A stretch of 11,781 nt of DNA from the IMG/VR virus record IMGVR_UViG_2660238352_000022. One strand, 5' to 3'. Both the position numbers and the translations under genes were made by a program. The notes under the pieces were generated by a model, which saw nothing but the letters and a program-made list of their open reading frames with translations, was not told the origin of the DNA and did no database searches. The DNA comes from a virus. Taxonomy: Monodnaviria; Loebvirae; Hofneiviricota; Faserviricetes; Tubulavirales. Shown piece by piece: positions 2,493 through 2,644 of the stretch. How positions within the stretch are numbered: the first letter of the stretch is position 1; each line of letters starts with the position of its first letter.

Positions 2493-2545
2493 GTGCCGAC
2501 CGGGATTATCAGGACGCGGCATCTCAGTTTACCTACCACAACGTC

Positions 2546-2578
2546 AGTGCGCATAATGTGACACGCGTTATGTTGAAA
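2546..2578 (+). other. Phage attP, dif-like site A (XerC-arm-like, 11-bp central region, XerD-arm-like)
   Basis: AGTGCGCATAA TGTGACACGCG TTATGTTGAAA. The left arm equals the dif XerC arm except for the first base. The right arm matches the dif XerD arm TTATGTTAAAT at 9 of 11 positions. Spacer is 11 bp rather than 6 bp. It lies at the copy 1 / copy 2 junction. Confidence 0.7.
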
Positions 2579-2579
2579 A

Positions 2580-2617
2580 GGCCGCTGCGATACTCTCCAC
2601 CGCAGCGGCCTTTTTAT
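2580..2617. terminator. GC-rich hairpin: tip of the attP fold and/or bidirectional rho-independent terminator
   Basis: GGCCGCTGCG - 11-nt loop - CGCAGCGGCC, followed by TTTTTAT on the plus strand and preceded by CTTTTC (T-rich on the minus strand). Located between the two inverted dif-like sites. Confidence 0.5.
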
Positions 2618-2641
2618 ACATAACGTCATTGTGCGCACTGA
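2611..2641 (-). other. Phage attP, inverted dif-like site B
   Basis: The reverse complement of 2611..2641 reads AGTGCGCACAA TGACG TTATGTATAAA. This is an imperfect inverted copy of site A, so 2544..2644 can fold into a long imperfect (forked) hairpin in single-stranded DNA. Confidence 0.5.
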
Positions 2642-2644
2642 ACC

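Follow-up and report, generated by a model that had tools for sequence, protein, structure and literature searches.

A predicted CTXphi-style forked-hairpin attachment site in tandem filamentous prophages at an Escherichia coli-type dif

The window, that is, the whole stretch of 11,781 nucleotides analysed here, contains two tandem copies of a filamentous prophage, with positions 1-300 recurring at 8022-8321. The named genes of the prophage unit all lie on the + strand, and two small open reading frames (ORFs) on the - strand adjoin the putative attachment site attP, as listed below.

2560..11535 (8976 nt), + strand: complete prophage copy 2, defined by the tandem repeat boundaries and the ORFs
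about 3439-5439, + strand: P2 gpA-type replication endonuclease (PF05840) of ~666 aa, from Pfam
6522-7886, + strand: g3p-like attachment protein (Phage_Coat_A), from Pfam
8262-9473, + strand: Zot-like assembly ATPase, from the ORF scan
10260-11468, + strand: secretin of 402 aa, intact in copy 2, from the ORF scan
2645-2800, - strand: small ORF beside attP, 51 aa, no function from Pfam or PHROGs
2864-3064, - strand: small ORF beside attP, 66 aa, matching phrog_2503, no function from Pfam or PHROGs

When the 20 ORFs of the prophage unit were searched for an integrase against Pfam, no recombinase match was obtained. The nearest named relatives of the replication endonuclease (Rep) are those of the Vibrio phages fs2 and VFJ, with 29% identity over 85% of the protein. 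The host of these phages is different, and the GenBank phage collection, their records included, gave no match to the attP region in either near or distant mode. As for the small ORFs, Vibrio IMEXs encode Xer activation factors adjoining attP (bioRxiv 10.64898/2026.06.12.731946).

Several irregularities were observed within the array. The secretin gene of copy 1 (1900-2492) is broken: a 145-nt segment (~codons 6-54) occurs three times in tandem at 1915-2356, ~906 nt of the gene interior are absent, and the frame meets stop codons, so that copy 1 is either a defective, satellite-like copy or the product of an assembly artefact. Between the Zot-like and secretin genes lies a 339-nt tandem repeat, with 2.2 copies in prophage copy 2 (9487-10221) and ~1.2 copies in prophage copy 1 (1466-1861), at 96% identity; in E. 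coli TD225-C4, these two genes are separated by only 177 nt. The g3p-like gene carries Gly/Ser-rich tandem repeats at 7139-7392, with periods of 15, 30, 39, and 78 nt. These repeats make up the linker region, which varies in Ff-like phages.

We then compared the region downstream of the copy 1 secretin gene with the E. coli dif site, GGTGCGCATAA TGTATA TTATGTTAAAT, which has a 6-nt centre between its XerC and XerD arms. The following features were assigned, together with the right prophage junction.

2544..2641, + strand (coding, presumed packaged): whole putative forked-hairpin attP, from the predicted fold (40 pairs, 3 of them G.T) and family conservation
2546..2578, + strand: site A, analogue of CTXphi attP1, from arm matches; the repeat boundary at 2559 and the junctions put the exchange here
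2580..2610, no strand assigned: inner GC hairpin, a 10-bp stem with an 11-nt loop, followed by T5 on the + strand and T4 on the - strand
2613..2639, - strand: site B, analogue of CTXphi attP2, from arm matches; bottom strand of the predicted folded site, never the crossover point
11522..11549, + strand: right junction (attR), composed of the phage XerC arm AGTGCGCATAA, the dif centre TGTATA, and the XerD arm TTATGTTAAAT; 27/28 identical to E. coli dif

Site A comprises the XerC arm AGTGCGCATAA (2546-2556, +; 10/11 positions identical to dif), the 11-nt centre TGTGACACGCG (2557-2567, +), which begins with TGT, and the XerD arm TTATGTTGAAA (2568-2578, +; 9/11), followed by a single A. On the - strand, site B comprises the XerC arm AGTGCGCACAA (the reverse complement of 2629-2639; 9/11), the 5-nt centre TGACG (2624-2628), and the XerD arm TTATGTATAAA (2613-2623; 8/11). 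The two sites are thus inverted, with 34 nt between them, where the inner stem GGCCGCTGCG (2580-2589) pairs perfectly over 10 bp with CGCAGCGGCC (2601-2610) around the loop ATACTCTCCAC. Every element of the earlier description of two inverted dif-like sites around a perfect GC stem was therefore found, with site B now set to 2613-2639. Neither site has the normal duplex centre of 6-8 bp, and only the XerC side of the site A centre matches the dif centre TGTATA, as TGT is common to both and the rest differs. A search of the window for GTGCGCAYAATG with at most one mismatch returned only 2547 (+), 2638 (-), and 11523 (+), three matches versus 0.17 expected, a number reached by none of 200 shuffles. 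The inner GC hairpin is predicted to nucleate the large hairpin described below, and it may also terminate transcription in both directions downstream of the secretin gene. A terminator scan of 2300-3400 returned no terminator; the inner hairpin was missed because its loop exceeds the 8-nt limit of the scanner.

The prophage junctions locate the recombination event within site A. The right end of prophage copy 1 (2357-2559) is 100% identical to 11333-11535, and the identity ends after AGTGCGCATAATGT, inside site A, past which the 11522-11549 segment runs on as TATA TTATGTTAAAT. Because attR differs from E. coli dif at only one of 28 positions, integration restores a usable dif at this end. The attL of the element lies outside the window, and we thus read it in a 98% relative, that of E. 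coli TD225-C4 (L001). Its left junction, just downstream of hipA, reads GGTGCGCATAA TGTGACACGCG, with the host G at arm position 1, and continues into the GC hairpin and site B, whereas the internal junctions of the TD225-C4 array retain the phage A at arm position 1. Taken together, the end of the tandem identity, attR, and the TD225-C4 junctions confine the crossover to a 13-nt interval of site A, bounded by arm position 1 and centre position 4, that includes the XerC cleavage point. These junction sequences are equally compatible with an XerC exchange on a duplex site A, and cannot separate single-stranded from double-stranded DNA integration. As regards the site itself, the earlier note was right to place the phage at an enterobacterial-type dif. 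To the right of dif, 24 nt match the chromosomal flank, and from 11567 on, the only matches in the complete E. coli genome set are plasmids, with 99-100% identity over 11567-11781.

Folding of 2540-2650 as single-stranded DNA, the check proposed in the earlier note, gave a stable hairpin in which A pairs with B and the centre is bulged. On the + strand, 2544-2558 pairs with 2627-2641, and 2565-2589 pairs with 2601-2626, at -40.2 kcal/mol versus -13.9 +/- 2.6 for shuffled sequences (z = -10.0; 0 of 200 shuffles reached this energy), and the identical hairpin was predicted within a 311-nt context. In the minimum-energy structure, the bulge is one-sided and consists of six nucleotides, TGACAC (2559-2564), closed by a G2565.T2626 wobble, and T2617 is also unpaired. 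Thus, the A-B duplex with a bulged centre was borne out as a stable fold, but not the 8-against-2 internal loop that had been envisaged. The complementary strand folds less well, at -36.8 kcal/mol, because three G·T wobbles turn into A·C mismatches.

To find relatives of this site, public collections were scanned with the inner-stem pattern and with the arm motifs, and inner-stem matches without dif-like arms (GC hairpins in Firmicutes, Alphaproteobacteria, and others) were discarded as unrelated. As a result, the same layout was detected in dozens of inovirus-sized viral contigs and Enterobacterales genomes, including CUS-1 in E. coli UTI89, as well as Y. pestis, Photorhabdus, Erwinia, Pectobacterium, Lelliottia, Phytobacter, Cedecea, and others. 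In all relatives, the site A centre is 9-11 nt long and always begins with TGT (34 of 34 distinct sequences), with the remainder of the centre as the most variable part, and site B is kept with a 5-nt centre (TGACG, TGGCG, TGCGC, or TAACG). The bulge and loop vary freely across the family, whereas the Xer-like arms and the TGT start are invariant. Within E. coli, the attP cassette occurs on at least three replication-protein backbones, with a gpA-type Rep in this window, a II/X-family Rep in CUS-1 of UTI89, and a "replication initiation factor" Rep in E24377A. The lineage of the window's phage comes mainly from human isolates, and most of those checked are from stool.

The window structure was further tested for covariation on the 34 distinct sequences. 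Pairing was found in 90.6% of cells, versus 30-50% for registers slid by 1-3 columns, although conserved motifs would by themselves account for much of the pairing seen, because both arms must bind XerC and XerD. Changes on both sides were observed in 12 of 42 pairs, versus a shuffle mean of 5.9 (0 of 500 shuffles reached 12), in an alignment of sequences that share descent, with many columns set by the search patterns and some rows that may be host/phage hybrid left junctions. Compensated pairs also lie outside the Xer arms, at columns 10-13 with 107-110. The stem extension past the XerC arm is TC/GA in the window's lineage and ATT/AAT in CUS-1 and Ypf. Furthermore, the pair at XerC arm position 1 is A-T or G-C across the relatives, at the centre/XerD boundary two sequences have an A-T pair and the others G-C, and one relative (L146) has three compensatory swaps in the inner stem. 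In 30 of the 34 sequences, the + strand gives the more stable fold, with a mean gain of 2.4 kcal/mol.

We therefore consider it probable that the attP of the window is a CTXphi-style forked hairpin, used for single-strand integration at dif by the host Xer recombinases. This reading, proposed in the earlier note, is supported by the fold, the crossover at the XerC cleavage interval, the 11- and 5-nt spacers, the absence of an integrase, the tandem arrays, the covariation, and the strand bias. The tandem arrays in the window and in TD225-C4 are consistent with the single-strand scheme and prove nothing. We infer the single-stranded substrate, the XerC-only catalysis, and the irreversibility of the reaction, and the packaged strand would be the + strand, judging only from gene orientation.

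In the proposed scheme, site A of the packaged + strand would pair with site B, with the GC hairpin as the nucleus, to form a folded site with a duplex XerC arm of 11 bp plus two further base pairs, a partly paired XerD arm, and a centre that is paired at both ends and carries the 6-nt bulge on the top strand. XerC would cut the top strand after AGTGCGCATAA and exchange it with the top strand of dif, and the TGT common to phage and dif would stabilise the swapped strand. No second exchange would follow, because homology is absent on the XerD side, and replication would convert the exchanged junction into the prophage. Once integrated, A and B would be ordinary duplexes with 11- and 5-bp spacers, which are presumably poor Xer substrates, and excision is therefore not expected. 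New phage single strands would instead arise by rolling-circle replication across the tandem copies, via the HUH-type (nicking) endonuclease.

To our knowledge, single-strand Xer integration has been demonstrated experimentally only with a Vibrio phage site, and we know of no functional Xer site with a spacer as short as the 5-nt bottom-strand spacer found here. A literature search likewise found no demonstration of the single-stranded DNA route for any enterobacterial phage. E. coli XerCD do process the CTXphi hairpin in vitro (PMC3089051). Ypfphi was reported to insert between copies already resident and to be maintained outside the chromosome, neither of which was predicted by the simple CTX model (PMC4266046).

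The same junction sequences would be produced if the duplex site A alone recombined with dif as in the VGJphi type, with XerC acting first, replication resolving the intermediate, and site B and the hairpin serving otherwise. VGJphi-type IMEXs indeed share host-Xer-dependent integration at dif with the first exchange by XerC, and fs2, one of the nearest Rep relatives at 29% identity, is grouped with the VGJ type (PMC4246890). However, VGJphi is described with a single, fully paired 29-bp dif-like site and reversible integration (PMC4246890), whereas the window has two inverted sites, neither with a normal spacer, and no single duplex dif-like attP with a fully paired centre of ~7 bp was found. 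The spacer of site A is 11 bp here and 9-11 bp in the relatives, versus 6 in dif; site B, with its fixed 5-nt centre, is kept in every relative; A and B show compensatory changes, also outside the Xer arms; and the strand bias from the G.T wobbles would be meaningless for a duplex site. Integration through a duplex site A is thus unlikely. TLCphi-type integration, with XerD acting first and the XerD arm missing, was ruled out, as both arms are present and the crossover lies on the XerC side.

Ff phages have a packaging hairpin in the intergenic region just after gene IV, and the hairpin of the window occupies the equivalent position, 52 nt past the secretin stop codon. Together with the T runs after the inner GC stem on both strands and the strand-biased fold, this could mean that the long hairpin chiefly serves as a signal in the single-stranded genome (for packaging or as a complementary-strand origin) or as a two-way terminator, with site A alone as the attachment site, or else that it has such a second function besides attP. 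A packaging or terminator hairpin, however, needs neither XerC- and XerD-like arms on both sides nor a centre initiated by TGT, and it is the arms and TGT that are invariant in the family, while the bulge and loop vary. The terminator scan was also empty here, with a loop beyond its limit. We regard it as quite improbable that this is the main role of the hairpin, which may nevertheless have a packaging or terminator role in addition to that of attP. Any two inverted dif-like sites pair to some extent, and site B might accordingly be the dead scar of an earlier, oppositely oriented integration, with an accidental complementarity to A. The chance of this appears very slight, as many genera and at least three unrelated replication backbones share the geometry, compensatory changes are present, and the stem runs past the 11-nt arms with the lineage-specific complementary bases.

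The forked-hairpin reading was then placed among the known dif-integrating phages, the comparison that the earlier note had called for. The closest counterpart is a homologue, the attP found in CUS-1phi of E. coli O18:K1:H7 and in Ypfphi of Yersinia pestis, with ~84% identity to the UTI89 copy over a 92-nt aligned core. The XerC arm, the 11-nt centre starting with TGT, the XerD arm, the GGCCGCTGCG stem, and the site B centre TGACG are all shared, as are the integration next to hipA at dif and the tandem arrays. CUS-1 differs, however, in its 350-aa Rep of the II/X family, compared with the gpA-type protein here; CUS-1 and Ypf have a G.A mismatch in the XerC arm, which is fully paired in the window; the bulge and loop sequences differ; and in the window, attR follows the secretin gene with no accessory ORFs in between. 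The window's phage therefore falls outside the CUS-1phi/Ypfphi lineage, as only the ~92-nt attP core matches UTI89 and the Rep belongs to a different family.

Across a 7.1-kb segment, the sequences of CUS-1phi and Ypfphi agree at 99% (PMC4266046). Both phages have been described as related members of the CTXphi class (PMC4246890) and as enterobacterial IMEXs related to CTXphi (PMC3442271). A CTX-like mechanism was proposed for both (PMC4266046, PMC4246890), and in PMC3089051, which cites Val et al. 2005, their attP is said to have the features for direct single-stranded DNA integration at dif. An enterobacterial phage with the CTXphi design is thus to be expected and is no surprise, because such features had previously been ascribed to the homologous attP in CUS-1phi and Ypfphi (PMC3089051, PMC4246890, PMC4266046). 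The hairpin attP of the window is a real but further example of a described design, on a different phage backbone.

The CTXphi attP1 centre is 12 nt long and begins with TGT, and the attP2 centre is 7 nt long (PMC3089051). The window shares with CTXphi the two inverted dif-like sites with abnormal spacers (12/7 nt there, 11/5 nt here), the match to dif on only the XerC side of the centre, the regeneration of dif at one end, the lack of an integrase, and the tandem prophages. On the other hand, outside the Xer motifs the two sequences show no detectable homology, the window's site has a shorter bottom-strand spacer, the attP function here is predicted, the host and recombinases are enterobacterial, and the window's phage encodes its own secretin. 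The two dif-like sites of CTXphi are separated by a spacer of ~90 nt, whereas a 31-nt GC hairpin lies between the sites here.

The site of the window would extend the CTXphi-style single-strand design to a further E. coli filamentous prophage lineage, and leaves the current picture of Xer-exploiting elements unchanged. One attachment cassette is common to phages with different replication modules across many Enterobacterales, and its natural variants of the bulge, spacers, and arm mismatches form a ready comparative data set. With the window's phage, E. coli would also become a model in which single-strand Xer integration can be tested. Because three Rep families in E. coli alone carry the cassette and fragments of it occur on plasmids, we speculate, with considerable reservation, that A, the GC hairpin, and B form a portable cassette moved between unrelated filamentous-phage backbones. 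As part of the same tentative idea, the 5-nt bottom spacer and the bulge may represent an enterobacterial geometry that XerCD handle unlike that of CTXphi, and the cassette may double as a terminator or packaging hairpin, or a small adjoining ORF may help.

Two further sets of partial or duplicated sites came to light. Half of a CUS-1-type attP, with the inner GC hairpin and site B but without site A, is present on many large E. coli plasmids, such as plasmid p2 of E. coli EC28 (L003 2505-2570); 484 plasmid places were matched, and the half site adjoins an STM4504-family gene and a truncated gene for the IS200C transposase. In Erwinia sp. OLFS4 (L048), two related attP copies (210-250 and 3766-3806) lie 3.5 kb apart, one with the XerC arm GGTTCGCATAA, fully paired with its site B, and the other with GGTGCGCATAA. 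The site A centre is only 9 nt long here and the site B centre is TGCGC, and the element may be a small satellite-like element.

The right flank of the window also has features of its own. In the plasmids that match it (L147 5940-6215), the flank adjoins a dif-like site, AGTGCGCACAA GATAGA TTATGTTAAAT. Before this site come ~40 nt similar to the right end of a filamentous phage, and after it the ~24 nt that also follow the chromosomal dif. An operon ~600 nt from this plasmid site, presumably of the EcxAB type, encodes a cholera-toxin-like B subunit (Enterotoxin_b) and a metzincin-like protein. Just right of dif in the window, the 10-nt unit GAGTGATACG is repeated 2.7 times at 11557-11583, with one unit fewer in the chromosome of strain 100416 and in plasmid pE300444, and the repeat is followed at 11582-11655 by a fragment resembling the flank of IS911-type elements.
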